DNA of 57,697 nucleotides from a virus. The notes under the pieces were generated by a model. That model did not search any database and was not told the DNA's origin. It saw only the letters and a list, made by a program, of their open reading frames with translations. Shown here in pieces: positions 2,954 through 51,152 of the stretch. The translations under genes and the position numbers were made by a program. Numbering within the stretch: position 1 is the stretch's first letter; each line of letters starts with the position of its first letter. Location of the stretch: the IMG/VR virus record IMGVR_UViG_3300045988_023664, positions 1-57,697 of that record; one strand, 5' to 3'.

Positions 2954-3602
2954 CAGCTTCGCCCTCCTCTGCATAATCAATCTTGCTTACCGATACTTCA
3001 TAAGCAGTTCTTGTTTCAACTTCATTGTCGCTTATCTTCTTAGCGTATTCCCTGCTCTGGAATCTACCCTGAATCTGGATATGTTCCCCTGTTTCAAGTC
3101 CGCCTACAAATCTTGCATTTCTTCCCCATGCTATACATGGTATGTAATCTGACTTGCCATATGGTCTGTTTACCGCTACTAAGATATCTGCAATCTCTCT
3201 GCCCTTTGGAGTACATCTGTATATAGGTGGCTTACAGATATAAGCGTCAAGTATAACCATATTGGTATTATCTTCAAATGGTAATTCTTCTGAATCCTGT
3301 GTCAGCACTTCAAATTCTCTTGCAAAAACCGTTAGAATCAGCTTGCTCTTCATATTGTCAGTATGCTTATTGAAGCTTCTTATCTGTCCTAAAACCGCGA
3401 CAGCCTGTCCTACCTTGATTTCTCTAATATCAGTAAGTCTATCTGATATCATCACTGGTAACACATCTTCATTGCCACTTGTTCTTAAACACTTGAGCAT
3501 AAACACATAAAACCCCTCGCCAAGCACTTCATGTGAGTACTCTGGCTCTTTCTTAATTATCCCTATTAATGTGATATTGTTGTTATTAATTGCATTTTCC
3601 AT
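2946..3602 (-). CDS. OB-fold ssDNA-binding-like protein (two OB-like halves)
   Basis: The pattern NITLIGIIKKEPEYSHEVLGEGFYVFMLKCLRTSGNEDVLPVMISDRL...VGQAVAVLGQIRSFNK resembles Clostridial SSB-like or PriB-like OB-fold proteins. It lacks the acidic C-terminal tip of canonical SSB. Confidence 0.5.
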   Translation of the reverse strand: MENAINNNNITLIGIIKKEPEYSHEVLGEGFYVFMLKCLRTSGNEDVLPVMISDRLTDIREIKVGQAVAVLGQIRSFNKHTDNMKSKLILTVFAREFEVLTQDSEELPFEDNTNMVILDAYICKPPIYRCTPKGREIADILVAVNRPYGKSDYIPCIAWGRNARFVGGLETGEHIQIQGRFQSREYAKKISDNEVETRTAYEVSVSKIDYAEEGEADV

Positions 3603-3614
3603 TTCTTTCTCTCC

Positions 3615-3767
3615 TTACTTTAATGTGTAACTTCCTATTGGTACTTTATCCATTCTTTCAATCAGATGGATTTTGCAGCTGAAAGTATAGAACTTTCTGA
3701 AATCCTTTTCCCTTATAGCTCTCTGTCTGTTTCTGTTCAGCTTAATAATTCTTTTTATGTTACTCAT
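3615..3767 (-). CDS. Small basic protein (50 aa)
   Basis: The ATG at 3767 has RBS AAGGAGAG 5 nt upstream and overlaps the upstream stop by 8 nt. It fills an otherwise empty 150-bp gap. Sequence: MSNIKRIIKLNRNRQRAIREKDFRKF... Confidence 0.45.
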   Translation of the reverse strand: MSNIKRIIKLNRNRQRAIREKDFRKFYTFSCKIHLIERMDKVPIGSYTLK

Positions 3768-4056
3768 TGGCACTCTCCTTACATCTGTAATACATTGTTG
3801 TAATAAATCCTCTTGTTGTGAGGCAGTCATAATTCTTCCATGCTGATAAATCATGGTCAGCCGTTTTAATCGCTGTTCTAATTGACCTTTCAACAGCACA
3901 TCTTGACTTGCCTACTGTACTAGCAATGTTATTGTAAATTTCTTCCATTGTTATAGAAGAATTGAACCGTTTAACAGCTTCAATTATGTAGATGTAACCT
4001 CTTTTATTAGAGAGAATACCTAAGTTGAACATCTCTTCTCTTATCCTTGCTTCCAT
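3760..4056 (-). CDS. Spo0A C-terminal (DNA-binding) domain-like protein, with no receiver domain
   Basis: GILSNKRGYIYIIEAVKRF...ITMEEIYNNIASTVGKSRCAVERSIRTAIK aligns by eye with the Spo0A_C motif (GVPAHIKGYxYLREAI...ITKxLYPxIAKKxxTTASRVERAIRHAIE). The ATG at 4056 has RBS AAGGAG. Confidence 0.7.
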   Translation of the reverse strand: MEARIREEMFNLGILSNKRGYIYIIEAVKRFNSSITMEEIYNNIASTVGKSRCAVERSIRTAIKTADHDLSAWKNYDCLTTRGFITTMYYRCKESANE

Positions 4057-4065
4057 AAACACTCC

Positions 4066-4587
4066 TTACTTGTAGCAAAAGTACATGTTCTGCACTTTCT
4101 TATAAACGCCGCTTCCTTGTTTAAATTCAGCTTGATACAACACATTGCTAGGTATGTCATATCCGCTTATTAATAATTCTTCTGCTATTCTCCAACATCT
4201 TTCTGTTGGTTCTTTATAGAATCCGCTGTTTATAAGTTCTGTACATTGATATTGCCCTGGCTGATAAATAACTTCTTCAATGCTGTTAGGGAAATACTCA
4301 CTTCGTACCCGATTCAAAACAACAGCTCCTGCAAGATATAGCATTTCATCATCGTTGCATGTCGCTCCGCATTCACCCATCAGCAAATGTGCCATAAGCG
4401 ACAACTCATATTCATCAACACTTATCTCTCCAGTTTCAACCTTATAATCAACATGTGAGTTGTAGCATTCACTTAACACTGCACTCTGATGATTAATCTT
4501 AGCTTGCGGTTGTACCGGTCTTAGAATCAACGCTATAAGGCTGATTCCTGCCAGTGTTGCGGATATGTTAATTATCTTTTCTTTCAT
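4066..4587 (-). CDS. SleB/CwlJ-family cell wall hydrolase with an N-terminal membrane anchor
   Basis: An N-terminal hydrophobic segment followed by LLMGECGATCNDDEMLYLAGAVVLNRVRSEYFPNSIEEVIYQPGQY, which matches the Hydrolase_2 (SleB) core motif. Confidence 0.75.
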   Translation of the reverse strand: MKEKIINISATLAGISLIALILRPVQPQAKINHQSAVLSECYNSHVDYKVETGEISVDEYELSLMAHLLMGECGATCNDDEMLYLAGAVVLNRVRSEYFPNSIEEVIYQPGQYQCTELINSGFYKEPTERCWRIAEELLISGYDIPSNVLYQAEFKQGSGVYKKVQNMYFCYK

Positions 4588-4595
4588 ATCTTCTC

Positions 4596-5303
4596 CTACA
4601 TGTTTGTATCATGTACCACCTCAGCAAGTGCTATTGGCAGCAAATAGGTATCAATGAATTCATGTACATCAGCCAAGTATTTTCTTTTGATACTCTTGTA
4701 TGTCGCCACGCACCCGAATTCGCGTTTTAACTGCTTGTATATATCAGAATATACTGAACCGCGAATACCACCGTCTTTGTACGCATTGCTGTCCTTTCCG
4801 CCAAGTACTTCAATTCCTTTCTTTCTAACATGTTTCTGCACTTCTTCAATCTCACAGCCGTAAAGCGGAGTTTCTTCTTCGATACTGATTATCTTATCTT
4901 CAACCTTATCAACTCTCTCTGTGAGTTCTGTGTTGCCCTGTGCCAATAATCTAATCTGTTCAGATGTTGTCAAAGGCTTACTGTAACTTCCTGTCTTTCT
5001 GATTGATGGAAGAACCTCTGATGTAACCCAGTGTTTAAATCTCTTAGCGGATTCAAGTCTGCTCCCAAAAACTAAGGCATAAACACCAGATTCGTTAATA
5101 ACAGTCATACTCTGCTTTCCGCCAAGGGTGTCGATAGTGTCTACTCCCTTATCCTCGTCAAACACATGAGTAGCGATTGCATCTCTTGGATTTGCAAATC
5201 CTAGTGCTTTTGCAACATCTTTTCCAACAAAATATGTTTCATTATCCTTGGTAATGGTTCGGATTTCTCCGAACTCTGAATTGCTAAAAATCTGTAGCTC
5301 CAT
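4596..5303 (-). CDS. Bro-N domain antirepressor-like protein
   Basis: The N-terminus (LQIFSNSEFGEIRTITKDNETYFVGKDVAKALGFANPRDAI) is a typical Bro-N/KilA-N-type domain. The C-terminal half is ORF6C-like. ATG at 5303 is preferred (RBS GAAAGGA). Confidence 0.8.
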   Translation of the reverse strand: MELQIFSNSEFGEIRTITKDNETYFVGKDVAKALGFANPRDAIATHVFDEDKGVDTIDTLGGKQSMTVINESGVYALVFGSRLESAKRFKHWVTSEVLPSIRKTGSYSKPLTTSEQIRLLAQGNTELTERVDKVEDKIISIEEETPLYGCEIEEVQKHVRKKGIEVLGGKDSNAYKDGGIRGSVYSDIYKQLKREFGCVATYKSIKRKYLADVHEFIDTYLLPIALAEVVHDTNM

Positions 5304-5452
5304 AAACATTCCTTTCTAAATAATGTGTGATATATTCCTTTTAAGGTGCATTTGAGCAATTCTGCTCATTCCTATCTGTTGTAACTTGTAGAACTTTATA
5401 TTTATTGATACAATAAAGAAGTGATGGTAGACACTTTCCGAAAGGAGATTGT

Positions 5453-5590
5453 ATGGATACTGTCATAGCATTGTGCGTATCAGCGGTTGGCTCATACTTC
5501 TGTGGCGTAGACTTCTGCACCCTGTACGCTCTTATTTCTATATCAATAGAATTAAATAAATATGCTAAAGACAAAACTGCCAATCGGTAG
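5453..5590 (+). CDS. 45-aa hydrophobic Cys-rich peptide (not in the ORF track)
   Basis: Strong RBS AAAGGAGA 5 nt before the ATG at 5453. Sequence: MDTVIALCVSAVGSYFCGVDFCTLYALISISIELNKYAKDKTANR. It has its own candidate promoter (TTGTAG-17-TACAAT) and a terminator at 5611-5632. Confidence 0.5.
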   Translation: MDTVIALCVSAVGSYFCGVDFCTLYALISISIELNKYAKDKTANR

Positions 5591-5610
5591 GTAATTCACA
5601 CTCGATGCAA

Positions 5611-5632
5611 ACAGGACACCACTCCTGTTTTG
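5611..5632 (+). terminator. Intrinsic terminator (ACAGGA-N6-TCCTGT followed by TTTT)
   Basis: A 6-bp GC-containing stem followed by a T run, 20 nt after the stop of the 45-aa ORF. Confidence 0.55.
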
Positions 5633-5771
5633 AAGAACCAATGAATACCACATTATAAGAGATTTGTAACTATTTACCGCTACCATCACTTTTCTATTGC
5701 ATCAATATCAAAAATTCTAATCCATTTGTGCTATAATCCTCTTATCTTTAATATTGAAAAGAGGTGAGATT

Positions 5772-5978
5772 GTGAAAAATTTTGTAGATTTCAAAGCTTT
5801 TGTAAACTCTAATGGCAATGAAATTCATTCTTCAATTCATCAGAAGGTAATGTCTGCTACTGAAAAGCAAAACTTTACTGACACTGCTGAAGAATACGAG
5901 TTCATTCGTCGTGCGTGGGTGGAAATTGGCATTATGGAAATGCTGGAACATTACCATAACTGGCTCAATCAAGATTAA
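5772..5978 (+). CDS. Hypothetical protein (about 68 aa)
   Basis: ORF track entry 5754..5978. The GTG at 5772 is preceded by AAAGAGGTGA. An extended -10 (TGcTATAAT) lies at about 5727-5735. Confidence 0.55.
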   Translation: MKNFVDFKAFVNSNGNEIHSSIHQKVMSATEKQNFTDTAEEYEFIRRAWVEIGIMEMLEHYHNWLNQD

Positions 5979-6114
5979 AAGCCGATTTGCCAACTTTGCT
6001 CTGATACTCTTTATCTTCCTTGCTTGCAAGTTTCTTCAATGACCGATTGATTTCTTCAAGCAAGGAATTTCTTTTCTTTTCAATCTGGATTAATTCTTTC
6101 AGTTCTCTTTCCAC
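5965..6114 (-). CDS. Possible 49-aa coiled-coil micro-protein
   Basis: GTG at 6114 with RBS AAAGGAG 6 nt upstream. Sequence: VERELKELIQIEKKRNSLLEEINRSLKKLASKEDKEYQSKVGKSAFNLD. It overlaps the 3' end of the convergent plus-strand gene by 14 nt. Confidence 0.35.
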   Translation of the reverse strand: MERELKELIQIEKKRNSLLEEINRSLKKLASKEDKEYQSKVGKSAFNLD

Positions 6115-6117
6115 TCG

Positions 6118-6261
6118 TTACTCCTTTCCTTCTGTCTTTTCACTCTCTCTTACCATTGCCATTCCCTCGGCGACGCCAAGAATGTAATTTTTCTTGCTAT
6201 CATCAAGTTTTGGTATTGTATCGGATAACTTCTTGATGATTTCCTTTTCCTTTTCACTCAT
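6118..6261 (-). CDS. 47-aa micro-protein, first gene of the leftward early operon
   Basis: ATG at 6261 with RBS AAAGGAAGTGA. Sequence: MSEKEKEIIKKLSDTIPKLDDSKKNYILGVAEGMAMVRESEKTEGKE. Confidence 0.45.
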   Translation of the reverse strand: MSEKEKEIIKKLSDTIPKLDDSKKNYILGVAEGMAMVRESEKTEGKE

Positions 6262-6316
6262 TCAATTCACTTCCTTTCTGTGATATAATGTTTTTTAAAA
6301 AATATTGGAGGTCATT

Positions 6317-6649
6317 ATGCAATACACACCAAATTGCCCAAATATGGATAAATTATTTCCACAGCCCAAAATTCCTGAAATTGAAGTGCCTACATATGAA
6401 AAAGGCAAATCTCCATATGAGCTTTTAGAAAGTCAGTCTGCTTATCTTGAAAAGACAAGCAAGGAACTTCACGATATGGCTCAATCCGCTAAATCCCAAG
6501 CTGATTCAGCAAAGGAAATTGCCGAAAGTTCCAAAACACAAGCTGATGTTGCGTTAAAAACATCAAGCAAAGCTGATATTAAAGGTTGGATTGCGGTAAT
6601 CATATCCATACTAGCTTTTGTATGGAGCATCATTTCTCATTTCATATAA
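6317..6649 (+). CDS. Tail-anchored membrane protein (coiled-coil ectodomain plus C-terminal TM helix)
   Basis: ATG at 6317 after GGAGGT. It ends in the hydrophobic tail WIAVIISILAFVWSIISHFI. It lies upstream of the repressor on the same strand, so it is a candidate superinfection-exclusion or lysogeny-expressed gene. Confidence 0.6.
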   Translation: MQYTPNCPNMDKLFPQPKIPEIEVPTYEKGKSPYELLESQSAYLEKTSKELHDMAQSAKSQADSAKEIAESSKTQADVALKTSSKADIKGWIAVIISILAFVWSIISHFI

Positions 6650-6725
6650 AAGAGTTAATAATGCTAAAAACTAAAGCAAGGATTGATACTATCAGTGCGA
6701 CATCCGAAAATGTTAGCTTTTTCAT
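6642..6725 (-). CDS. 27-aa hydrophobic peptide (not in the ORF track)
   Basis: ATG at 6725 with RBS AGAGGTGA 6 nt upstream. Sequence: MKKLTFSDVALIVSILALVFSIINSFI. It overlaps the convergent gene end by 8 nt. Confidence 0.45.
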   Translation of the reverse strand: MKKLTFSDVALIVSILALVFSIINSFI

Positions 6726-6860
6726 TTTTTCACCTCTTTTCTATTTGACTTTGTGTGATTATAATATCATACCTAGTAATACCTGTCAACATATTTTAGT
6801 GAAAAAGTTTGACATTGTGTGACTTTAATGTTATTGTATATATGCAAGGAGGTGAGAAGT

Positions 6861-14603: not shown

Positions 14604-15377
14604 CTATGCAACTTCATTGAATAATTGCAGTATAAATTCTCTTCCAAGCTGTGTTATTCTCCTGTGATAAATAACCTTACCATTGTCAAGGATTTCTTGC
14701 TTAATCTCTTCATATCCCATACTGCTGTATGGCGAGTAAAGAACCCAAGTTCCATTGACACTGTATTGGATTTTTTTATCAGCAAGTAACTTGTTAAGTT
14801 GAATAGCAGATTTCAGATTCAGTTCCTTAGCAATCTCTGTCATTGTATATGTCTTATTGACATGTGTTAAGATAGCGTTCTTTCTTTCTGCTTCAACTCT
14901 TGCTTGTCTTTCCTGTTTTAACTTTGTTAATAATTCTATTCCAAAGTCTGGATTATTCAGTATTTCATCAATAACATTATCAGTAGCATATATTCCATTC
15001 TTACGAATTGACGGAATAATCTCATCAGCCACTAATGCTTGAAATTTCTCTGCTGTTTCATTTTTGGCTTTCATTGCTAGTCGGTAGAAGATGTTTTCTG
15101 GGATAAAATCTGGACAATTCCCTTTGTAATTGCCGTTGCAACTTCCTGCAACGACCTTTAAATCTGTTAGATAATTGTAAACCGTATTCCACCTAACAAC
15201 CTCGTTGCCACTTGCTGCAACGGTGGTAAACCCAAGTCCTCTAGCAACATTTTCCAATCTTAAGTACGCAACGCCATTCTGCTCATAGCAGTCTACGCCG
15301 CAAATATTCTTAGTGTTCATAGGTACTTTAATCTCATTGTGAGAACTATCTTTTGTAGTTGGATAATTATAACTCAT
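14604..15377 (-). CDS. Phage antirepressor (ORF6N/KilA-type N-domain plus ANT/KilAC C-domain)
   Basis: GVAYLRLENVARGLGF...VRWNTV...FIPENIFYRLAMKAKNETAEKFQALVADEIIPSIRKNGIY, and a C-terminal part with TMTEIAKELNLKSAIQLNKLLADKKIQY. Confidence 0.8.
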   Translation of the reverse strand: MSYNYPTTKDSSHNEIKVPMNTKNICGVDCYEQNGVAYLRLENVARGLGFTTVAASGNEVVRWNTVYNYLTDLKVVAGSCNGNYKGNCPDFIPENIFYRLAMKAKNETAEKFQALVADEIIPSIRKNGIYATDNVIDEILNNPDFGIELLTKLKQERQARVEAERKNAILTHVNKTYTMTEIAKELNLKSAIQLNKLLADKKIQYSVNGTWVLYSPYSSMGYEEIKQEILDNGKVIYHRRITQLGREFILQLFNEVA

Positions 15378-15470
15378 TATTTGCCTCCTACAAAAATTTT
15401 ATCATTTGCTCTAAACAGAATCTATTGCGTAGTGGGAGTATATGCCCACAATGCCTCACGCAATAATATT

Positions 15471-15590
15471 TTATTTGTTTAAATTGTCTTTCGACATATT
15501 AACAGCAAAACGATATATTTGATGTAATATCCATATATCTTCAATATTTTCTAATGCTTCATTTATTTCGTCTTTTAATTGTTTTTCCAT
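15471..15590 (-). CDS. 39-aa micro-protein, paralog of 7238..7354
   Basis: Internal ATG at 15590 after GGAGGAAAAAC. Sequence: MEKQLKDEINEALENIEDIWILHQIYRFAVNMSKDNLNK. Confidence 0.5.
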   Translation of the reverse strand: MEKQLKDEINEALENIEDIWILHQIYRFAVNMSKDNLNK

Positions 15591-15707
15591 TTGTTTTTCC
15601 TCCGAAAATAATCTTGATTTTCCGAAAGAAACTGATATAATTGTATTTATCAATTCCTTTCGGATTGGTGGTTTGAGTAGTCACTATAAGTTTTGACCGA
15701 CTTGTGG

Positions 15708-15911
15708 CTACTCTTTTTTGTTATCTTTAAGTTCTTTTTCTACTAACCCTATGCCTTTCATAATGGTATCGGTTCTTGTTAATTCTAATTCATCAGCACA
15801 TTTCTGAATACGATTAGCTTCATCTTTTGTTATCCTGATATTAAGATTAACATTTCTAGGGTTTTCCTTATGCGGTCTTCCTGCTGGACTAATAATAATC
15901 ACTCCTTTCAA
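15708..15911 (-). CDS. Ribbon-helix-helix (CopG-like) DNA-binding protein
   Basis: GRPHKENPRNVNLNIRITKDEANRIQKCADELELTRTDTIMKGI fits the RHH pattern. The start codon is uncertain (TTG at 15911). Confidence 0.5.
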   Translation of the reverse strand: MKGVIIISPAGRPHKENPRNVNLNIRITKDEANRIQKCADELELTRTDTIMKGIGLVEKELKDNKKE

Positions 15912-16025
15912 TTATTGCCCTTGCAATATTTATGTTATTATAATAAATGCACGTGCAATAATTGTCAAGTACTTTTTAATAAAAAATGGAACGCACCGAA
16001 AGATACGCTCCGTTTAAACCATATA

Positions 16026-16370
16026 TTACCAAAAAATCAACCCACATCTGTTACATACAAACCTATGTTGTGAATAAGTTCCGCCCTGTTGCTTAATCTT
16101 CTCTTTCTTATTAACCAGTGTAAAAGGTCTTAAAGGATTCAGATTAACAGTATATCTTGTTTTGGATTTCTGCGGTACAGTTGTTGTAATCTGCGTGTGA
16201 GAACAATCCCAACTACTACATCTTGGACAATATACTTCAATCAATCCGTTTTCCGTCGCTCTGTACACTCCTTTAAAGTTAGGATTTAATGGCTGTTGAG
16301 GTTCTGGCTGTTGTTTCTTCTTCACTCCTATTGCTTCTAACATTTCATTCAGTTCTTTTTTTACTGACAT
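16026..16370 (-). CDS. Zinc-ribbon protein (CPRC...CNRC)
   Basis: ORF with two CxxC pairs, inside the moron island. Confidence 0.55.
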   Translation of the reverse strand: MSVKKELNEMLEAIGVKKKQQPEPQQPLNPNFKGVYRATENGLIEVYCPRCSSWDCSHTQITTTVPQKSKTRYTVNLNPLRPFTLVNKKEKIKQQGGTYSQHRFVCNRCGLIFW

Positions 16371-16381
16371 ACATATTCCCT

Positions 16382-16867
16382 CTACTGTAATTCTAATGTT
16401 AATTTTATAAGTTTTTTATCAATAAATGACGAATGGGCTTCCACCTCTAAATCTACATTACTTCTATCATTTAAAATAAACGCTTCCGCAATTGTAATAG
16501 ACGTGTTTGGCTGTATTTCTTTCATAATATTATCTTCCTCTTTGACAACTTTGAGTAAAGGATAATCCAATTCTACGCCATTTTGAAAACAATTTATGTC
16601 ATAATTATATGCAGCTCTGGTATTGTCTTTAGAATTATTAGTGAAATCAAAATAAACAATAAGTATATCTTTTTCATTATTATTTATAATTTCATGCTTA
16701 AGATACTTAAATTCCGTATTGTTATAAGTGGCATTATCACTGCTTTTTTCTGTTGTGGTATTAGTGTTTTCTGTCTTTGTATCGGTACTTCTATTGCCGT
16801 AAACTATTATCAAGACTAAGACAAAAGCTATTGCCAAACCGATGTAAAGTTTCTTTTTCTTTTTCAT
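16382..16867 (-). CDS. Membrane-anchored DUF4352/DUF5067-like protein
   Basis: MKKKKKLYIGLAIAFVLVLIIVYG signal anchor followed by a beta-rich domain (ILIVYFDFTNNSKDNT...). This type of protein is often immunity or exclusion associated. Confidence 0.6.
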   Translation of the reverse strand: MKKKKKLYIGLAIAFVLVLIIVYGNRSTDTKTENTNTTTEKSSDNATYNNTEFKYLKHEIINNNEKDILIVYFDFTNNSKDNTRAAYNYDINCFQNGVELDYPLLKVVKEEDNIMKEIQPNTSITIAEAFILNDRSNVDLEVEAHSSFIDKKLIKLTLELQ

Positions 16868-16927: not shown

Positions 16928-18658
16928 TCAATACGGAAAGGCTGCTTGACCTGTCATATTTGTATAGCTGTTAGCTTTATCTTGTACCATTGTAAATAGC
17001 TTATCCGCGTCACCTTGTAATGTTATATTTACATTGTTGTTAGCTTCTGACATAGCTGCTACAACCGCATTGTAAACCGCTGGATAAACTGCATTAGCAA
17101 TACCTTGTGTAATTTCCTGTTGGTTAGCTACCGCTGTTCTTCCGTCCATAGTACCAACCATTTCAGGACCTACTTCATTTGCGACAAACAATTGCCCTTT
17201 ACCTGGGAATCCGCCGTTTGCATACCAATCAATACTGACTTTTGGTACTTTAGGCGGTGCAAGACTAAATTCTCCGTCAATTTTAAAGTGTGGTGTATCA
17301 ATGTGTGGAAATTCAAGTCCTAAATCATTCCACCACTGCTTAAAGCTGTTCCAAGCGTTCTGTATCTTAGTTTTAAAATCTTCGATAGCCACAGAAATGC
17401 GCTGAAGTGATGGCTTGCTATCCCACCAATCTACAATATCATCCCACTTTCCTTGGATTCCTTTTTTAATTCCATCGGCTAAGTTTTCCCATTTTTCCTT
17501 AGTAAACCACGGTCTCACATCATTGCTCCACCAAGAAACAATTGCGAGACTATTCCACCAACCAACGATTGAGTCCCACTTTTCTTGTATTCCTAATTTC
17601 ATTCCATCAACAGCGTCAACCCATGTTTCTTTTTCAAACCATGGTGTTACATCATTGTTCCACCAATTTACAATAGCTGTATTATTCCACCAGTCTGTAA
17701 TTTCATCCCACTTTTCTTGTACAGCAAGTTTAATATCTTCTACAGCGTCTTTAGCTTTTTTTACATACTTGCTGTCTTCTATGCTTGCTGAAAATTCTGT
17801 AATAAATTTAATAGTAACAACCCCACCAGGAACAATTAAAGAAGCTAAGATACCAGCAATTCCCCATTTGTCATATATTTCTTGGTAAGCACCCCATAAT
17901 AGCTTTATTGCAGATAAAGCTAAATCGATTGTTAAATCAGATACTTTTACTGCTATTTTACCTAAATTTATTCCTTCAATAAATTTAATTATATCTTTAC
18001 CTAATTGCTCCCAATCTACAGAACTGATAAAGCCATCTGCAAAATCTAATGTTTTGCAAATGGCTGTTGTAATTGCTTCTCCTGTTTTTTTCCACGGAAC
18101 AGCATTTATCCCTTTGTTTACTTGCTTACCTGCGTAAGTGCCTATTCCGTACCAGTCACCTTTTTTTATGGCTTTCTCTATCTTATCAGCCCACGCAATA
18201 GCCGAATTTTCCATATTGGCAAATGCTTTATTCCAAGCCGCTTCATAATCAGCCGCCGCCTTAGTAATATCATCTGTTAAGTCAATACTGCTACCGCCGC
18301 CACCGCTTGAACCCTTGCTTGAGCTTGTATCGTCCTGTAATTTATTTATTTCATCAAATCCCATAAGGGATAATGTAGCTTTCTTTGCTGAATCTGCTAC
18401 ATTTTGGTATCCGTCTGAAATATCTTCTAATCCGTCAGAAGTATCTTTGTAACCGCTTTGTCCGAAGCTCTCAAAGTCAATCTTAACGCCCATTAAAGAA
18501 GCAAGGTTGACTAATAATCTTTTGATTGCAATAGTTACTCCGTTTACTATTGGCATAACCTTTGAAAGAATTGGGATAAATAACTGTCCTGCTACCATTC
18601 CGACTTCTTTCATGTTGTTGCTAAACTGGCGTAACATATTACTTGGGGAATTAATTGT
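16928..18658 (-). CDS. Tape measure protein, proposed exon 2
   Basis: Starts at TINSPSNMLRQFSNNMKEVGMVAGQLFIPILSKVMPIVNG, the hydrophobic TMP core. Periodic Trp repeats (WWNN..V.PWF.KE.W) follow. The ORF track extends it upstream to 18769 only because the frame happens to be open. Confidence 0.7.
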   Translation of the reverse strand, partial: TINSPSNMLRQFSNNMKEVGMVAGQLFIPILSKVMPIVNGVTIAIKRLLVNLASLMGVKIDFESFGQSGYKDTSDGLEDISDGYQNVADSAKKATLSLMGFDEINKLQDDTSSSKGSSGGGGSSIDLTDDITKAAADYEAAWNKAFANMENSAIAWADKIEKAIKKGDWYGIGTYAGKQVNKGINAVPWKKTGEAITTAICKTLDFADGFISSVDWEQLGKDIIKFIEGINLGKIAVKVSDLTIDLALSAIKLLWGAYQEIYDKWGIAGILASLIVPGGVVTIKFITEFSASIEDSKYVKKAKDAVEDIKLAVQEKWDEITDWWNNTAIVNWWNNDVTPWFEKETWVDAVDGMKLGIQEKWDSIVGWWNSLAIVSWWSNDVRPWFTKEKWENLADGIKKGIQGKWDDIVDWWDSKPSLQRISVAIEDFKTKIQNAWNSFKQWWNDLGLEFPHIDTPHFKIDGEFSLAPPKVPKVSIDWYANGGFPGKGQLFVANEVGPEMVGTMDGRTAVANQQEITQGIANAVYPAVYNAVVAAMSEANNNVNITLQGDADKLFTMVQDKANSYTNMTGQAAFPY

Positions 18659-18998
18659 CAATTTGTTATCGTATAGGCTCTTTATCCTATACTTCTTATA
18701 GTTTCCTATAAGTTCAGAGTACATTATCACCCACGTTTTTGCGTTTGGTTTGGTGGTAGCCACTTCCACCTCATATCGCCCTATATGCGATAGTGTCGGA
18801 CACTCTTGGGAATGTTATATTTATTCAATTCCTACTCGTTACGATACTCAATAGCCTGTTCGTAATCTATTGAGTTATCTCGGTATTAGCATAGTTGAAA
18901 AACTTTAGCCTTTACCGATTTTGCCCGATTGTCATAAGATGTTTCCATTCTTATGCAACACTTGGAAGATAAGTTATGTCATTAACTTTCTTCCGTCT
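18659..18998 (-). ncRNA. Candidate ORF-less group I-type intron in the tape measure gene (340 nt)
   Basis: It interrupts the motif WGDLAN|TINSPSNMLRQ. The exon-1 last base is U, the insert's last base is G, and the junction is phase 0. At least 9 perfect hairpins are present, including a 7-bp stem capped by GAAA. See findings. Confidence 0.6.
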
Positions 18999-20270
18999 AT
19001 TAGCTAAATCGCCCCAAGATACTTTACTTTGGTCTAATATTGCCAACACTCTTAATTGCTGTTTTTCCATCTGCGTCATTTCTGATACAGACTTAGAAAT
19101 GCCTAAGTTATAAGCATATGTCGCTAATGTAGCATTAGTAATATCAATACCATACTTATATAATGCCCTTGATTGACCGATTAAGCCGCTTTGTAAGTTC
19201 TGTGCTACTGTTGAATAGTCCACATTAAAAAGCGAGCTTATATCACCTGCAAGCATTGTCATTGACTTTGTTATAGCCGTTGTCGCTTCACCAGTCTGTC
19301 CTAATGAATTAGTGACAGAAGCTAACTGCGAAGCATACTGCGTTATCTCTTGTATGTTAAGTCCTAAGTTTTTTGCTCCGCTTTCTTCAAGCAAGCCACC
19401 TTGAACATTAACCTTAAGTCCGGACAGCTTTCCGAGAGTATCATTTACTCTGTTCTGAAAGCTTTCTGCGTATGCTGTAGCATTATCATATCCGTACTTT
19501 TCATAATCCTTATCCCATTCTGAACCGATTTTACCAAATGCAACTGCTTGATAGTTAAACGCTTCAATGTAATCTGTTGTTGATTTTATAGCTTCTATAA
19601 GTTTCTTACTGCCACGAATTACCATAAAATAAGTTGCATAGAACTTACCTATTGCACTTGCTAAGCTCCAACTACTTCTAGTTGCTGTCCTAGCGCTTGT
19701 AGATACTCCATACAGCGACTTTTGAAGTGGGTTTGAAGAAGTACCCACCTTGCTACCTTGACTAGCAAGATTAGCTAATGCGTTAGTCATAGCAATAACA
19801 TTACTACTTACATTAGGTGCTCTTGATAATGTGGTCATTAAGCCATTCAGTGCATTACCCAGTTTAGGGATATTCACTGTGGCATTTTCAATACTTTTAC
19901 TGCCTAGCTTGCCAAGTGACTTTGCAAATTCTGTAACCTGTGTTGCGTTCTGTGGTATGGCTGATATGCTTGCAACCGCTTTCGTAACGGCTTCAAGTGA
20001 TGTAGCTGTGTTAGCAAGTGCGGCTGAATCAACAGAACCTATCTTTGTGATGTTCTTAGCAAGTCTTGTAAAATCTGCTGTTCCTGCGTTCATATTCTGC
20101 ATAGCAGAACCTAACTGACTAACGCCGTTTGCAAGGTTGCTTAATGATGAGCCATTCACAGTCGCAAGTGATGTAGATAGCCTTGTAAGCTGATTTATCA
20201 ATTTATCAACAGAATTAATAGCTTTAGTGGCAGTACCGGTAATTTTGACTTCTAATGAATCTAATTCCAC
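18999..20270 (-). CDS. Tape measure protein, proposed exon 1
   Basis: Ala/Ser/Thr-rich helical N-terminal TMP region ending ...QLRVLAILDQSKVSWGDLAN. The unspliced frame stops 15 codons later (at 18951). Confidence 0.7.
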
Positions 20271-28912: not shown

Positions 28913-30646
28913 TTAATACCTCCTAAATGGGTTTATAGCAGCTTCAACCTTTGCTACTCTATTACCCTGTGTCATCCTCAATGCAAAGTTTGAAAATACA
29001 TCTGGTACATCATCTAACTGTTTCTTTCCTGATACTGAATACTGTTTTAAAAGTGACATCATTACTCCGTATGGTTCATTAGGTTTGTAAAGTGATGCGT
29101 CTTTAAAAATAATGTGTTGCAAAATCCAGTTAGAACATTGAAATATCCTTGCTTCCTTATTCGTTTCCGTAGGTGTATCTGTAATATTACATATCCAGCC
29201 TACACTCTCAACTCTCTTATTAACTTCCATTGCAACCCTGTCACCGCCAGCATTACGCTCAAACTCGCACTCTTGCACTTTATTATTTACAAGCACACCT
29301 GCGGCATTTCTGTATTGTTCTTCATAATCTGCTGTGTTGTCACATACGCAATCAACGCAGTAATAATCTTCTCCATATTTTTGCAATACAGGCAGCACAA
29401 AATAATCCGTACCTTTGCCCTTAGTATCGCATTGCGCTGTGATAATTTCCGGTTCTCCGTGTGGTAGATTAAGGTATCTGCGGATTTTATCGTCCGGGAA
29501 TAATAAGCCCTCACGTTCTATAGGGTCTTGTTTATACAGGCAGCGATATGAGATTTCATCCATAAGCAGCTGAATATCTTCAAAATCCTTTACTGTATAG
29601 CCGCCAAATTCAAAGTCAAAATTACTTTCTCCTGTTACTGGGTCTACATCAGGCACGGATATTACTTTAACTCGTTTGTTTCCCTCATAAGCTTGTATAA
29701 TACGTCCTATTACATCTCTAACGCTCCACCTTGTAGCAATATGTATTTCTTTACATGGGTTTCCATCCTCGTCCGGTATCTTTCTTTGTCGTGCATCTAC
29801 TGCATATTTATCCCACAATTTATCAAGATAGGTTGGGTTTAGTGCTTCTTCAATGCCGCCTATCATATCATCAACTAGCAGAAATTTATTGGCTCTGACT
29901 TTACCGGCATTTTTACTGCCGACGGATGTACATTGTACAGATTGAAACGGCTTATATTTTCCTACGTTAAACTGTTCAAGTTTTGCATTTGTACTTGTTA
30001 CTTCAAGTCCAGGGAACACTTCTCTCCATGTATACTCGTCAGCGTTTGTGACAATATCGTATACTCCATCATAATACATTCGTGTAATGTCTCCGCTGTG
30101 TGAATAAAAAAGGTTATATCCGTTTGAGTACCAACCTATAACCGCAGAATGGAAAAACTTTTCGATTGTGGTTTTTCCTGTTCCGGGTGGGAGAGAAATA
30201 CATAAAATATCATATTTATCATCAATCATGCCTTGTAATGCTTCTATTAAGCCTATTTTGATAAACTGTTTTCTTCTCGGCATATAGAATCTTTCTTTAG
30301 GTTCACGTTTCTTTTCTATGTATCTAAAAAAACTGTCAACAACTTTGTTTTGTGCTTCAATCAGTAAAATATCGTAAAACCAATTAATCAGCTCATATTC
30401 CGTTTTATTTGCAAACGCATACTTTTCTAAATCCCATATTGTTCCACCTGTCTTGCCCTTGCAGAAACGCTCTATAAGCTCTTTTGCTCTCTTAGTGAGT
30501 TGTAGTCCATACTCAATATCTTTCTCGCCATTTATGGCTACACTGCAAGCGTCTACATAGGCATTAGTTACTTGCTCGTCTATTCCATTTCTCTCTATGT
30601 AATTTTCGTAACTATCAACTGTGGAAATAAGGCTTTGACTAGCCAT
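28913..30646 (-). CDS. terL: Terminase large subunit
   Basis: Walker A LPPGTGKTT and Walker B FLLVDDM, with a C-terminal nuclease-type region. The ATG at 30646 follows GGAGGTG. Confidence 0.85.
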   Translation of the reverse strand: MASQSLISTVDSYENYIERNGIDEQVTNAYVDACSVAINGEKDIEYGLQLTKRAKELIERFCKGKTGGTIWDLEKYAFANKTEYELINWFYDILLIEAQNKVVDSFFRYIEKKREPKERFYMPRRKQFIKIGLIEALQGMIDDKYDILCISLPPGTGKTTIEKFFHSAVIGWYSNGYNLFYSHSGDITRMYYDGVYDIVTNADEYTWREVFPGLEVTSTNAKLEQFNVGKYKPFQSVQCTSVGSKNAGKVRANKFLLVDDMIGGIEEALNPTYLDKLWDKYAVDARQRKIPDEDGNPCKEIHIATRWSVRDVIGRIIQAYEGNKRVKVISVPDVDPVTGESNFDFEFGGYTVKDFEDIQLLMDEISYRCLYKQDPIEREGLLFPDDKIRRYLNLPHGEPEIITAQCDTKGKGTDYFVLPVLQKYGEDYYCVDCVCDNTADYEEQYRNAAGVLVNNKVQECEFERNAGGDRVAMEVNKRVESVGWICNITDTPTETNKEARIFQCSNWILQHIIFKDASLYKPNEPYGVMMSLLKQYSVSGKKQLDDVPDVFSNFALRMTQGNRVAKVEAAINPFRRY

Positions 30647-30767
30647 AAGAAAAGCACCTCCACTTTTAAAAAGCAAAGGTGCTTATAGACCTCTGCCTAT
30701 AATTGTTTTAGGGTAGCGCCATAAATCATTTATATGGCGGTAATATTTATTATTTCAGCAATCATCT

Positions 30768-34013: not shown

Positions 34014-34106
34014 GTTTACCTGCCTTTCTGATAACTGCCTTATTAACAAAACAACAAACAGGCACTAAGGCTTGTGCTTTTCGGTAGCTAACCTAGTTTG
34101 TTGTAA

Positions 34107-34178
34107 TCGGATAGATAGGACTTGAACCTATGACTACTTGAATGAATCAAGCGTTGCTCCCAACTGAACTACTATCCG
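34107..34178 (-). tRNA. tRNA-like gene with apparent anticodon UCA (opal-reading/suppressor-like), atypical D and anticodon arms
   Basis: Manual fold: perfect 7-bp acceptor (CGGATAG/CTATCCG), T arm ATAGG-TTCAAGT-CCTAT, anticodon arm GCTTG-ATTCATT-CAAGT. U at position 37 and a short or irregular D arm. Confidence 0.5.
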
Positions 34179-34294
34179 AAAAGTGGTAGCAGTAGTGGTT
34201 ACTGCCACTTTGAAATTGCTTTTGCCACTACTTTGTGCAATTTCATGCGGACTTTCTACCGCTTACGGCAAGGTTAACCCCTGTCGTAAGTTAG

Positions 34295-34377
34295 CGCCGA
34301 TATCGTGAATCGAACACGAACAACATTTCTGTTGGATAGCTTAGCGAGCTACTGGAATACCATTATCCCATATCGGC
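34295..34377 (-). tRNA. tRNA-Ser(GCU), type II with a long variable arm
   Basis: Acceptor GCCGATA/TATCGGC, T arm TCGTG-TTCGATT-CACGA, variable stem CAACA/TGTTG, anticodon loop UCGCUAA (C at position 33). Confidence 0.7.
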
Positions 34378-34676
34378 AATTTTATTCGCCATACCTATGA
34401 TTCTTTAAGTTTTGTGGTTTCTGGATCATCAAATATTATTCTCATAGATATGGCTTAATCGAGACTTCATGCCTAGCTGATATTGCACAGTATGGAAACC
34501 TTAGCATACTTCCGAAATACTTTCTTTTCACCGCTTCACTGGATTTCGAAAATACAATAATCCGCTCGGCAAGTTGAAAAACAATTATTCTTTTAATCCC
34601 CATAAGGGCATCCCATACAACAATCATCAAAACTCCCTCGCTTCGCGTAATTATTTGTTCTAGGTTTTAACCTATA

Positions 34677-34748
34677 GCTGGCAAGGTGGGAATCGAACCC
34701 ACGACAAGTCGGTTAACAGCCGACTGCTCTACCACTGAGCTACAAGCC
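34677..34748 (-). tRNA. tRNA-Asn(GUU)
   Basis: GTAGCTCAGTGGTAGAGC D arm, anticodon arm GTCGG-CTGTTAA-CCGAC, T arm GTGGG-TTCGATT-CCCAC. The acceptor stem has two adjacent U-U mismatches. Confidence 0.8.
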
Positions 34749-35062
34749 AAGATTTGAGGGTACTACGATTCAAGCACTCTCTGATAAAATTACATACAAG
34801 AGGGGTTGTATGTAATACCGCCTGTAACGGCTATCAAGAAACAAGAACAGAAACAATAAAATATTAGGGGTGTTTTGATAAGGAGTGCTTCTTGATAAGT
34901 TGGTTTTCACATGGCTATGTATATACACGCCAAACCCTCTCAAGCGGTCTTGCACCGCTTTTAACTGAACAAAATCCAAAGAGGTACATGAAAGGAGGAC
35001 TGTTCTGTGTAAAATGCAAAAACACAATAATGAACAGCCAAACAAATAAAAAGAAAAATAAA

Positions 35063-35134
35063 CTACCCTTATGGGAATCGAACCCATATTGCAGGAATCA
35101 AGCTCCTGTGCATTAACCATTATACTAAAGGGCA
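35063..35134 (-). tRNA. tRNA-Gln(UUG)-like
   Basis: Canonical 72-nt cloverleaf: acceptor TGCCCTT/AAGGGTA, T arm ATGGG-TTCGATT-CCCAT. The anticodon loop is GCUUGAU, giving UUG with C at position 33. Confidence 0.65.
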
Positions 35135-50264: not shown

Positions 50265-50556
50265 CTACTTTCTCAAAAGGAACACCTCTCAAATGTCCGT
50301 CAAGGTCTAATTCCGTTCCGTCAATATTTCCATTCAACTTGTTTTGACAATGACATAATAATGTTTCAAGGTCACAAATTCTACCTGCCCTATATTCATC
50401 TCTTATAAAGTCAAGAACTCTGTTCACACTTTCTATTCTGTATATTGCTATGAGTTCTGCATAATTATTAAAGTGTTTATTGGCAAGTTCTCTATATTCT
50501 TCGCCCTTTTTATACTCATCATTCGCTTTAGATAAATATTCTTCTGCACTCGTCAT
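50236..50556 (-). CDS. Hypothetical protein
   Basis: ORF in an operon. Confidence 0.5.
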   Translation of the reverse strand: MTSAEEYLSKANDEYKKGEEYRELANKHFNNYAELIAIYRIESVNRVLDFIRDEYRAGRICDLETLLCHCQNKLNGNIDGTELDLDGHLRGVPFEKVGESNADTNS

Positions 50557-51152
50557 TCGCTTTCACCTACTTTCAATAAATCCATAAACTTCTCATACTG
50601 TTTCTGCGATACCTTATTGTTAGCCTTATCTTCTCTCAATTCGATTTTAAGGTGTTTTTCTGCAATATTGGATAATTCCCTTGCAAGATTCTTTCTGCCT
50701 TGCTGTATGCCCTGTAAATAGCCTTTAGGTGCTTTTCTCTCGCCTATCGAACCACTATCACGATTTCCACCCTGCCCGCCAATGCTAACATTTCTAAGCT
50801 GATAGCCTTTATCAGCATATAGTTTGATGTAATACTTCTCTTTCTCGTCAAGCTGGCTTTCGGGAAAATTCAGAAATTCAACTCGCCAACCATAAGGATT
50901 TTTCTCTTTGTCATACAGCTTATGCTTGCGTAAACTAAGGTCTATGTGCTGTTCGTAGCCTACAAGGTGGCTTGCTAATCTCTGCAACACCGACTTAGCC
51001 TGTCCGACATACGCATACTTAAAGCCGTTTTCATCTTTTCGAAGCAAGAAGTATATCCCACTTTTGTCATTCAGCTTTGGATTCAGCTTCAATAGTCGCT
51101 TTTTGTTTTCCTGCTCTATTGTCTTGGCTCTTGCTATGTTCTGATAGTTCAA
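50553..51152 (-). CDS. GIY-YIG nuclease (free-standing homing-endonuclease-like)
   Basis: SGIYFLLRKDENGFKYAYVGQAKSVLQRLASH... fits the GIY...YVG motif. Confidence 0.6.
   Translation of the reverse strand: MNYQNIARAKTIEQENKKRLLKLNPKLNDKSGIYFLLRKDENGFKYAYVGQAKSVLQRLASHLVGYEQHIDLSLRKHKLYDKEKNPYGWRVEFLNFPESQLDEKEKYYIKLYADKGYQLRNVSIGGQGGNRDSGSIGERKAPKGYLQGIQQGRKNLARELSNIAEKHLKIELREDKANNKVSQKQYEKFMDLLKVGESE

Follow-up and report, generated by a model that had tools for sequence, protein, structure and literature searches.

The window analysed here, the whole 57,697-nt stretch of IMG/VR record IMGVR_UViG_3300045988_023664, comes from an uncultured gut siphovirus-type phage. Its late operon is ordered as terminase (28913-30676), head genes, tail genes, the tail tape measure protein (TMP) gene and distal tail genes. 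Megablast of window positions 1-25000 against INPHARED identified no related cultured phage, with only the 3' end of the insert described below being matched. Relatives of the TMP, at 48-67% identity, occur in gut assemblies, namely Firmicutes bacterium CAG:882, Clostridium sp. CAG:510, Faecalimonas and two Bacteroidales MAGs; the three that were checked (L110, L111, L113) are intron-less at the site in question. The TMP of another relative (ORF P0005, L116) was considered as the carrier of an extra intron and rejected, its two ORFs overlapping by 4 nt in the manner of a frameshift.

Within the window the TMP is encoded by two adjacent minus-strand ORFs, 20270..18951 (439 aa) and 18769..16928 (613 aa). 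Both match PHROG 1535, 'tail length tape measure protein', over successive stretches of the profile, and both match phrog_28918, its N-terminal end by the upstream ORF and its C-terminal end by the downstream one; a weak Pfam TMP_3 match is found in exon 1. In silico deletion of 18659-18998 (340 nt) leaves a single ORF of 1000 aa that reads ...SKVSWGDLAN|TINSPSNMLRQF... across the join, which bears out the in-phase fusion proposed in a first-pass annotation of this DNA. Exon 1 (18999..20270, minus strand) comprises 424 codons and ends GAT TTA GCT AAT, with U18999 as its last base. Exon 2 (16928..18658, minus strand) comprises 576 codons plus a stop and begins ACA ATT AAT TCC (TINS). The frame of exon 1 enters the insert for 15 codons and then meets a stop. 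Boundaries shifted by 1 nt (18658-18997) yield an identical mRNA, because the insert and exon 2 both start with A; only the boundaries 18998/18659 place a U before the 5' site together with a G at the 3' end, the two nucleotides that had been singled out at the start and that are indeed present in the sequence.

Homologs place the junction within an otherwise continuous protein. A 300-aa query taken from the predicted spliced product retrieved homologs at 45-75% identity that span the junction uninterrupted. The junction DLAN|TINSP is gapless in an alignment of 11 such homologs, with W, G, D, A, T, I and N invariant, and the segment WGDLANTINSPSNM likewise aligns without a gap. The homolog consensus around the junction, WGDLANTINSPSNMIRQF..N.KE.GMVLGQLFIPVL, shows that the conserved TMP motif which the first-pass annotation had named is correct. 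Conversely, the region encoded by the insert (RRKKVNDITYLPSVA...) is not conserved as protein, its substitutions instead being compensatory pairs. Reads from ligated exons would be expected to carry GATTTAGCTAAT|ACAATTAATTCC.

Alleles with and without the insert

Related contigs reveal a presence/absence polymorphism at this TMP site with highly conserved exon flanks (L012, L006, L110, L111, L113). Contig L012 matches window 20276-18998 and continues without a break at 18658-18171, thus missing precisely the insert, with 88-93% nucleotide identity in the flanks. L006, L110, L111 and L113 are intron-less with sites of the GGCTAAT|ACCAT type; the more distant alleles L006 and L111 read GGCTAAT|ACCATAAAT, the site as a whole being GGAGATTTGGCTAATACCATAAATTCTCC, and the intron-less TMP target site can be written GATTTGGCTAATACCATAAATTC. 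Since their sequences differ from that of the window, L012 and L013, both crossing the junction, are best read as intron-less alleles and not as cDNA. L006 and L013 look mosaic or chimeric, with TMP pieces beside unrelated genes, and were used solely for their local junction sequence.

Copies that carry the insert are numerous. The junction 17-mer GCTAATAGACGGAAGAA is present in 96 IMG/VR contig stretches, most of them from one IMG dataset (3300045988), which excludes the assembly artefact that had been named as a possible undoing of the intron interpretation. The same-site IMG/VR copies represent 46 distinct intron variants. Among the 83 complete same-site introns in IMG/VR, 70 are ORF-less and 337-341 nt long, and each of the remaining 13, at 1264-1276 nt, contains a GIY-YIG ORF, which is 311 aa long in 12 cases. 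Four further distinct introns occupy the same site: that of L001 (339 nt, ORF-less), a single intron shared by the two loci L004 and L005 (1054 nt), and those of L007 (1034 nt) and L009 (1251 nt). The introns of L004, L005, L007 and L009 contain a 233-306 aa ORF in the P5 loop with GIY-YIG, NUMOD1 and I-HmuI_NUMOD-like domains. All of these siblings share with the window copy the insertion point GCTAAT|...|AC[A/T]AT, the guide AAGUGUUGC and the helices. The endonuclease-bearing siblings, with their 233-311 aa GIY-YIG/NUMOD ORFs in the P5 loop, have a longer P7.1/7.2 region, whereas in the window copy a 23-nt P5 hairpin stands where they have the ORF. The longest ORF inside the window insert is 20 aa; consistent with the first description of it as lacking a plausible ORF, neither an intron-encoded homing endonuclease nor a reverse transcriptase-sized ORF is found within it.

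RNA structure and splice sites

A local Rfam scan of 901 nt matched the group I family RF00028 (Intron_gpI) at 48.4 bits and E 4e-11, covering model positions 1-253 and window 18985..18695. The group I assignment expected from the sequence was thus recovered over the full model, at a score 1.6 bits below the RF00028 gathering score of 50; the sibling in L001 scores 44.7 bits. The group II control proposed alongside was clean, since this local scan returned no other intron family, group II included, at E <= 10. Scans of the whole window at gathering and E-value thresholds did not report the intron, because of their filters, and are therefore uninformative about other introns in the window; at the gathering threshold they returned only four tRNAs and int-alpA RNA. 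An nhmmer search of the window with the intron profile revealed no second copy. The endonuclease-bearing siblings give no Rfam hit because the ORF interrupts the model. Folding of the insert reaches a minimum free energy of -92.1 kcal/mol, versus -61.8 +/- 4.6 for dinucleotide shuffles (z = -6.6, 0 of 100 shuffles as good).

Sequence relatives point in the same direction. By blastn against phage genomes, the core and 3' domain are found in 141 records from Streptococcus, Staphylococcus, Bacillus and Clostridium phages, and this portion has 78-90% nucleotide identity to introns of Staphylococcus, Streptococcus thermophilus, Clostridium and Bacillus phages. Several matches adjoin annotated HNH or LAGLIDADG endonuclease genes, and one lies inside the SPO1-type intron-split DNA polymerase gene of Bacillus phage DirtyBetty, beside an HNH ORF. 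Bacillus phage hits that apparently extend into exon 2 are coincidental, as they lie in this DirtyBetty DNA polymerase intron.

The secondary structure was examined by covariation, with intron positions numbered as i = 18999 minus the window coordinate. The alignment, A2, comprises eight different introns, each flanked by 9 nt of exon on either side, endonuclease ORFs having been excised by hand: those of the window, L001, L004/L005, L007 and L009, and three related introns at other TMP sites. L008 carries one of the latter (288 nt), 15 nt downstream in the same TMP motif and joining TIDTV|ANQYR; the other two, from Staphylococcus phage 6ec and Arcanobacterium phage TPWB06, interrupt the TMP at another site (...LG|NNMA...). 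For the tested structure, which was hand-written and explicit in window-intron numbering, 95.5% of cells are standard-paired, compared with 35-45% when the 3' partners are slid by 1-3 columns. Changes on both sides affect 44 of 83 base pairs, and column shuffles reaching the observed value on any of five measures numbered 0 of 500. Pairing is complete (100%) in P3, P5, P6, P7, P7.1 and the closing stem of P8, and reaches 97.5% in P4 and 92.1% in P6a. Compensatory changes occur in every core helix (P3, P4, P5, P6, P6a, P7, P7.1 and the P8 closing stem), the exceptions in the structure being the basal stem of the P1-loop hairpin, which is invariant, and the branch at 229-247.

All elements lie on the minus strand and proceed as follows from the 5' end of the intron. 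A hairpin within the P1 loop (18964..18994, intron 5-35) has the basal stem GGAAGA/UCUUCC. P2 (18933..18955, intron 44-66) consists of 9 bp with one bulge and a GAAA tetraloop, 7 of the 9 pairs being compensatory. The 5' strand of P3 (18923..18928, intron 71-76, UCGGGC) pairs with its 3' strand (18796..18801, intron 198-203, GUCCGA), and between them lies the P4-P5-P6-P6a domain (18843..18918, intron 81-156), in which compensatory pairs number 2 of 5 in P4 (81-85/115-119), 3 of 3 in P5 (89-91/109-111, with a loop of about 92-108), 1 of 2 in P6 (120-121/155-156) and 8 of 8 in P6a (125-132/145-152). The 5' strand of P7 (18833..18839, intron 160 and 162-166, with C161 bulged) pairs with the 3' strand (18716..18721, intron 278-283, UACUCU), 3 of the 6 pairs being compensatory, and the crossing of P3 and P7 forms the group I pseudoknot. 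Between P7 and the P3 3' strand stands the P7.1 hairpin (18809..18832, intron 167-190, stem 167-171/186-190), with 4 of 5 pairs compensatory; relatives have an additional distal, P7.2-like hairpin in this region. A P7.1 hairpin is a hallmark of subgroup IA, and on this basis the intron is probably IA-like. The expanded P8 (18728..18795, intron 204-271) has a closing stem (204-206/269-271) that covaries in L008 and TPWB06, a branch at 207-225 with 4 of 6 pairs compensatory, and a second branch, P8b, at 229-247, which is invariant among same-site copies and so carries no covariation signal. P9 (18695..18712, intron 287-304; 7 bp, GAAA tetraloop) marks the 3' limit of the Rfam match, and 4 of its pairs are flipped in 6ec with pairing kept. 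P9.1 (18671..18692, intron 307-328; 7 bp) has 2 compensatory pairs, and the intron ends in the terminal G, or omega G (18659, intron 340), at the 3' splice site.

Nine perfect hairpins had been listed by eye in the first-pass annotation, and eight are real helices of this fold: 5-35 is the P1-loop hairpin, 44-66 is P2, 120-156 is P6/P6a, 167-190 is P7.1, 208-224 and 229-247 are the P8 branches, 287-304 is P9 with its GAAA loop and 307-328 is P9.1. The ninth, at 196-206, is discarded, as it corresponds to the P3 3' strand (198-203).

The 5' splice site, directly after U18999, is defined by P1, whose 5' strand (18998..19002) comprises exon UAAU (19002-18999) plus intron A1 and pairs with the internal guide UGUUG (18956..18960, intron 39-43). 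The guide first suggested, GUUA at 13-16, does not hold up: it lies inside the 5-35 hairpin and differs in the same-site siblings L004 and L007, whereas UGUUG at 39-43 is invariant and falls in columns that covary with the exon in introns at other sites. Located between the P1-loop hairpin and P2, AAGUGUUGC is invariant in the 83 same-site copies. The exon and guide sets occupying the same alignment columns are UAAU/GUUG in the window, CGGU/GCCG in L008 and GGGU/GCCC in 6ec and TPWB06. U18999-G40 forms the splice-site U.G wobble and is invariant in 8 of 8 introns, as is A1-U39, and the three P1 pairs above the U.G covary with the insertion site, with A-U and U.G pairs replaced by G-C and C-G at other exon sites. 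No other single argument is as strong as this site-dependent covariation for the RNA recognising its own 5' splice site as group I introns do. With 5 bp, of which two are G.U, P1 is a short and weak helix, and its 38-nt loop with a hairpin of its own is atypical. The P1-loop hairpin is lineage-specific and has no counterpart in the introns at other sites. Its basal stem is conserved, whereas the apical part differs between copies in both length and sequence but remains paired, the variants including a G.U change and a shortened form. A P10 pairing can be drawn of 2 bp at most, A+1/C+2 with U39/G38; P10 is often weak or dispensable in group I introns.

At the other end of the reaction, G162-C282 in P7 is invariant in 8 of 8 introns and sits beside the bulged position 161, with the flanking pair 160-283 covarying from A-U to G-C; it is presumed to be the guanosine-binding pair. 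The last base of the intron is G in all eight aligned introns and in all 83 IMG/VR copies, the latter having been selected on ...TTG|AC so that the terminal G was part of the selection. G18659 is the sole G among the last 11 nt of the intron.

Splicing, mobility and alternative readings

Taken together, the RF00028 match, the covariation, the fold (z = -6.6), the junction homologs and the absence of precisely this segment from L012 make it very probable that 18659..18998 (340 nt, minus strand) is an endonuclease-less, IA-like group I intron in the tail tape measure gene, in line with the group I intron that the first-pass annotation had proposed, with splicing as a prediction from its sequence. 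The late transcript would fold into a P3-P8 core with the P3/P7 pseudoknot, P7.1, expanded P8, P9 and P9.1. The end of exon 1, UAAU, would pair with the guide UGUUG (39-43), presenting a U.G wobble at the 5' splice site; exogenous guanosine bound at G162-C282 would attack after U18999, the terminal G (18659) would next occupy the guanosine site and the exons would be ligated. The product of this predicted self-splicing would be one mRNA encoding a 1000-aa TMP with ...WGDLAN-TINSPSN... at the join.

An alternative is that the intron is a splicing-dead relic and that the TMP is made as two polypeptides, one of 439 aa ending ...RRKKVNDITYLPSVA and a C-terminal piece starting from GTG 18769 or an internal Met. 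The missing endonuclease gene, an Rfam score slightly below the gathering score, the weak P1 and the two proteins annotated by gene callers in hundreds of contigs all accord with such a relic, and GTG 18769 is preceded by GAGGTGG, a Shine-Dalgarno-like run that could start the C-terminal fragment. Yet the GGUGG of this run is one strand of the conserved stem P8b, and its spacing to the GTG is just 2 nt. The split would also fall mid-way in the most conserved TMP motif. In the sibling L001, stop codons close the exon-2 frame in the 3' part of the insert, immediately before TINSP, and without splicing the conserved start of exon 2 would therefore be untranslatable there. The core helices are kept by compensatory changes across eight introns, and 46 variants are found at the same site, which points to ongoing selection on the RNA fold, both purifying and compensatory, and makes a dead relic quite improbable. 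Still further from the evidence are a group II intron, a miniature transposable element, a translational bypass element and an assembly or chimera artefact. Nothing specific favours any of these beyond the silence of the whole-window Rfam scans on any intron. Against them, group I is the sole significant family in the local scan, the boundaries show neither terminal inverted repeats nor a target duplication, the exon sequence is continuous in intron-less alleles and the junction recurs in many Logan and ENA contigs in addition to the 96 IMG/VR stretches. The bypass in T4 gene 60 covers 50 nt, and 340 nt far exceeds known bypass gaps. On these sequence grounds all four can be regarded as excluded.

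With regard to mobility, the siblings encode GIY-YIG enzymes and the window copy does not; the intron family is therefore mobile and the window copy not autonomously so. The group I intron of the window is probably an endonuclease deletion derivative, with loss presumed over gain as the direction of change, and would be unable to home alone and be passively inherited. It fits the invasion-decay-loss cycle of homing introns, as discussed in PMC2504315.

A free-standing GIY-YIG ORF of 199 aa is present elsewhere in the window (50553-51152; Pfam 27.1 bits, cut-off 22.6). Such an endonuclease could cut intron-less TMP alleles during co-infection and so keep the ORF-less intron mobile, an arrangement termed collaborative homing, which Zeng, Bonocora and Shub are said to have documented in 2009 for a cyanophage psbA intron. 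Such trans homing would modify the reading of an ORF-less group I intron set out above without contradicting it. The dominance of ORF-less copies (70 of 83), which are not being purged, would suit it, but may instead reflect the sampling of one abundant lineage, mostly through IMG dataset 3300045988. The free-standing ORF shows only weak similarity to the enzymes encoded within the introns (tblastn E 0.078, 26% over 92 aa), lies about 32 kb from the TMP intron and has a specificity that nothing links to the TMP site, and its involvement is thus unlikely. Similarly speculative, and about as unlikely, is the notion that the ORF-less form predominates through trans mobilisation, or that the P1-loop hairpin makes splicing conditional on a phage or host factor. 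If splicing were conditional, an intron in a structural gene would regulate tape-measure supply and tail assembly.

Comparison with known introns

The window intron is well supported but ordinary, given that TMP group I introns are already on record (PMC2504315), and existing knowledge of group I introns and tape measure proteins is unchanged by it. Its main value is in annotation. In hundreds of gut-virome contigs the TMP is split into two unrelated 'hypothetical' proteins (439 aa and ~600 aa); either fragment would give a false prediction of tail length, and recognition of the intron restores the 1000-aa tape measure. The Rfam gathering threshold and whole-genome filters overlook this intron family. 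Intron-less alleles, endonuclease-bearing and ORF-less forms and a second related intron 15 nt away further provide a well-sampled natural series, useful for following how the homing introns of gut phages are gained, decay and are lost.

The nearest relatives in other TMP genes, in 6ec (NC_024355, 20536-28605) and TPWB06 (PQ358086), are unannotated as introns, the gene being given only as separate CDSs, and no description of them was found in the literature searched. They are homologous ribozymes, with 82-90% nucleotide identity to the window intron across its final ~77-79 nt, up to the 3' splice site. Like it, they lie in the TMP gene, follow an exon-terminal U and end in G, and their core helices can be aligned and covary. 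Unlike it, they occupy the site ...QLG|NNMA... in another TMP motif, use a GCCC-type guide, have no P1-loop hairpin, and show a simple P8 and a distal P7.2-like hairpin; the endonuclease of 6ec is of the HNH type, in contrast to the GIY-YIG enzymes of the window's siblings.

The introns of SPO1/SP82-type DNA polymerase genes, of Twort/K Staphylococcus phages and of the S. thermophilus lysin gene belong to the same Firmicutes-phage group I family, with 78-90% blastn identity to the window intron over the P7'-P9-P9.1 region and core. They reside in other host genes (DNA polymerase, lysin, ribonucleotide reductase), have other guides and are backed by experimental splicing evidence, whereas the window intron is known from sequence alone. 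The S. thermophilus lysin intron reportedly also exists as ORF-less deletion derivatives, as Foley et al. are said to have described in 2000.

Introns are also on record in other phage structural genes: PMC3706429 cites the capsid gene of lactococcal phage Tuc2009 as well as capsid and tail genes in Cluster J mycobacteriophages, and PMC4299906 cites the terminase gene of Lactobacillus phage LL-H. For the tape measure gene itself, Tourasse & Kolsto 2008 (PMC2504315) reports group I introns of subgroups IA1/IA2 at three sites in Bacillus cereus-group prophages, some without a complete endonuclease gene and with P1/IGS adapted to each site. By this description, TMP-IVS1/2/3 and the window intron share the tape measure gene, a phage-type, IA-like intron class, insertion in conserved TMP regions, copies without a full endonuclease gene and a site-adapted P1/IGS. 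The Bacillus introns belong to lambdaBa01-like prophages, whereas the window intron belongs to a gut Clostridia-type phage and has GIY-YIG-bearing siblings at its own site.

A second intron in the tape measure motif

Within the same conserved motif of the tape measure protein (TMP) that is split by the predicted group I intron of the window, a relative's contig (L008; ENA ERZ27247130 k141_1043464) carries a 288-nt, ORF-less group I-type intron at about 5160-5450. This intron is related to that of the window but different from it, lying 15 nt (5 codons) further downstream, and its removal joins the exons as TIDTV|ANQYR. It also has its own guide, in which GCCG matches exon CGGU. The conserved TMP motif appears to be a hot spot for introns.

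Split tape measure genes and sampling among relatives

The window's intron junction is also present in the IMG/VR contig L046 (IMGVR_UViG_3300045988_043250), and the majority of the 96 IMG/VR contigs bearing this junction come from one IMG dataset, 3300045988. In some relatives, e.g. L116 (Logan ERR10608966_8902, 3501-6730) and L012 (1896-4633), the TMP is called as two ORFs with no gap between them, which either abut or share a few bases. Such splits are frameshifts or sequencing errors and do not mark further introns. TMP fragments are joined with unrelated Mur ligase, TPR, and STAS protein genes in L013 (Logan ERR14021227_21660) and with unrelated terminase and RecT-like genes in L006 (Logan SRR31242657_22965); either contig may be a chimera of the assembly or the remnant of a prophage that has undergone heavy rearrangement.

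Other features of the window

Three seemingly non-structural ORFs on the negative strand separate the tape measure gene from the distal tail gene (1111 aa); they encode a DUF5067 protein (16382-16867), a 114-aa zinc-ribbon-like protein (16026-16370), and an ANT/Bro antirepressor-like protein (14604-15377). The region (14604-16867) is a moron-like insertion within the tail module. Also on the negative strand, a cluster of four tRNA genes (34107-34178, 34295-34377, 34678-34749, and 35063-35134) lies immediately next to a segment that matches the RNA family int-alpA (RF02996, 34038-34103, 53.8 bits), together spanning 34038-35134. A free-standing 199-aa ORF (50553-51152, negative strand) whose product contains a GIY-YIG catalytic domain (Pfam PF01541, 27.1 bits, cut-off 22.6) is a possible free-standing homing endonuclease. 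Its similarity to the GIY-YIG enzymes encoded within introns of related phages is weak.

Tape measure introns in named phages

The TMP genes of Staphylococcus phage 6ec (NC_024355, 20536-28605) and Arcanobacterium phage TPWB06 (PQ358086, 20953-27692), whose records enter the TMP pieces as separate proteins without an intron feature, are interrupted at ...LG|NNMA... by a group I-type intron related to that of the window. The 6ec intron contains an HNH endonuclease ORF.
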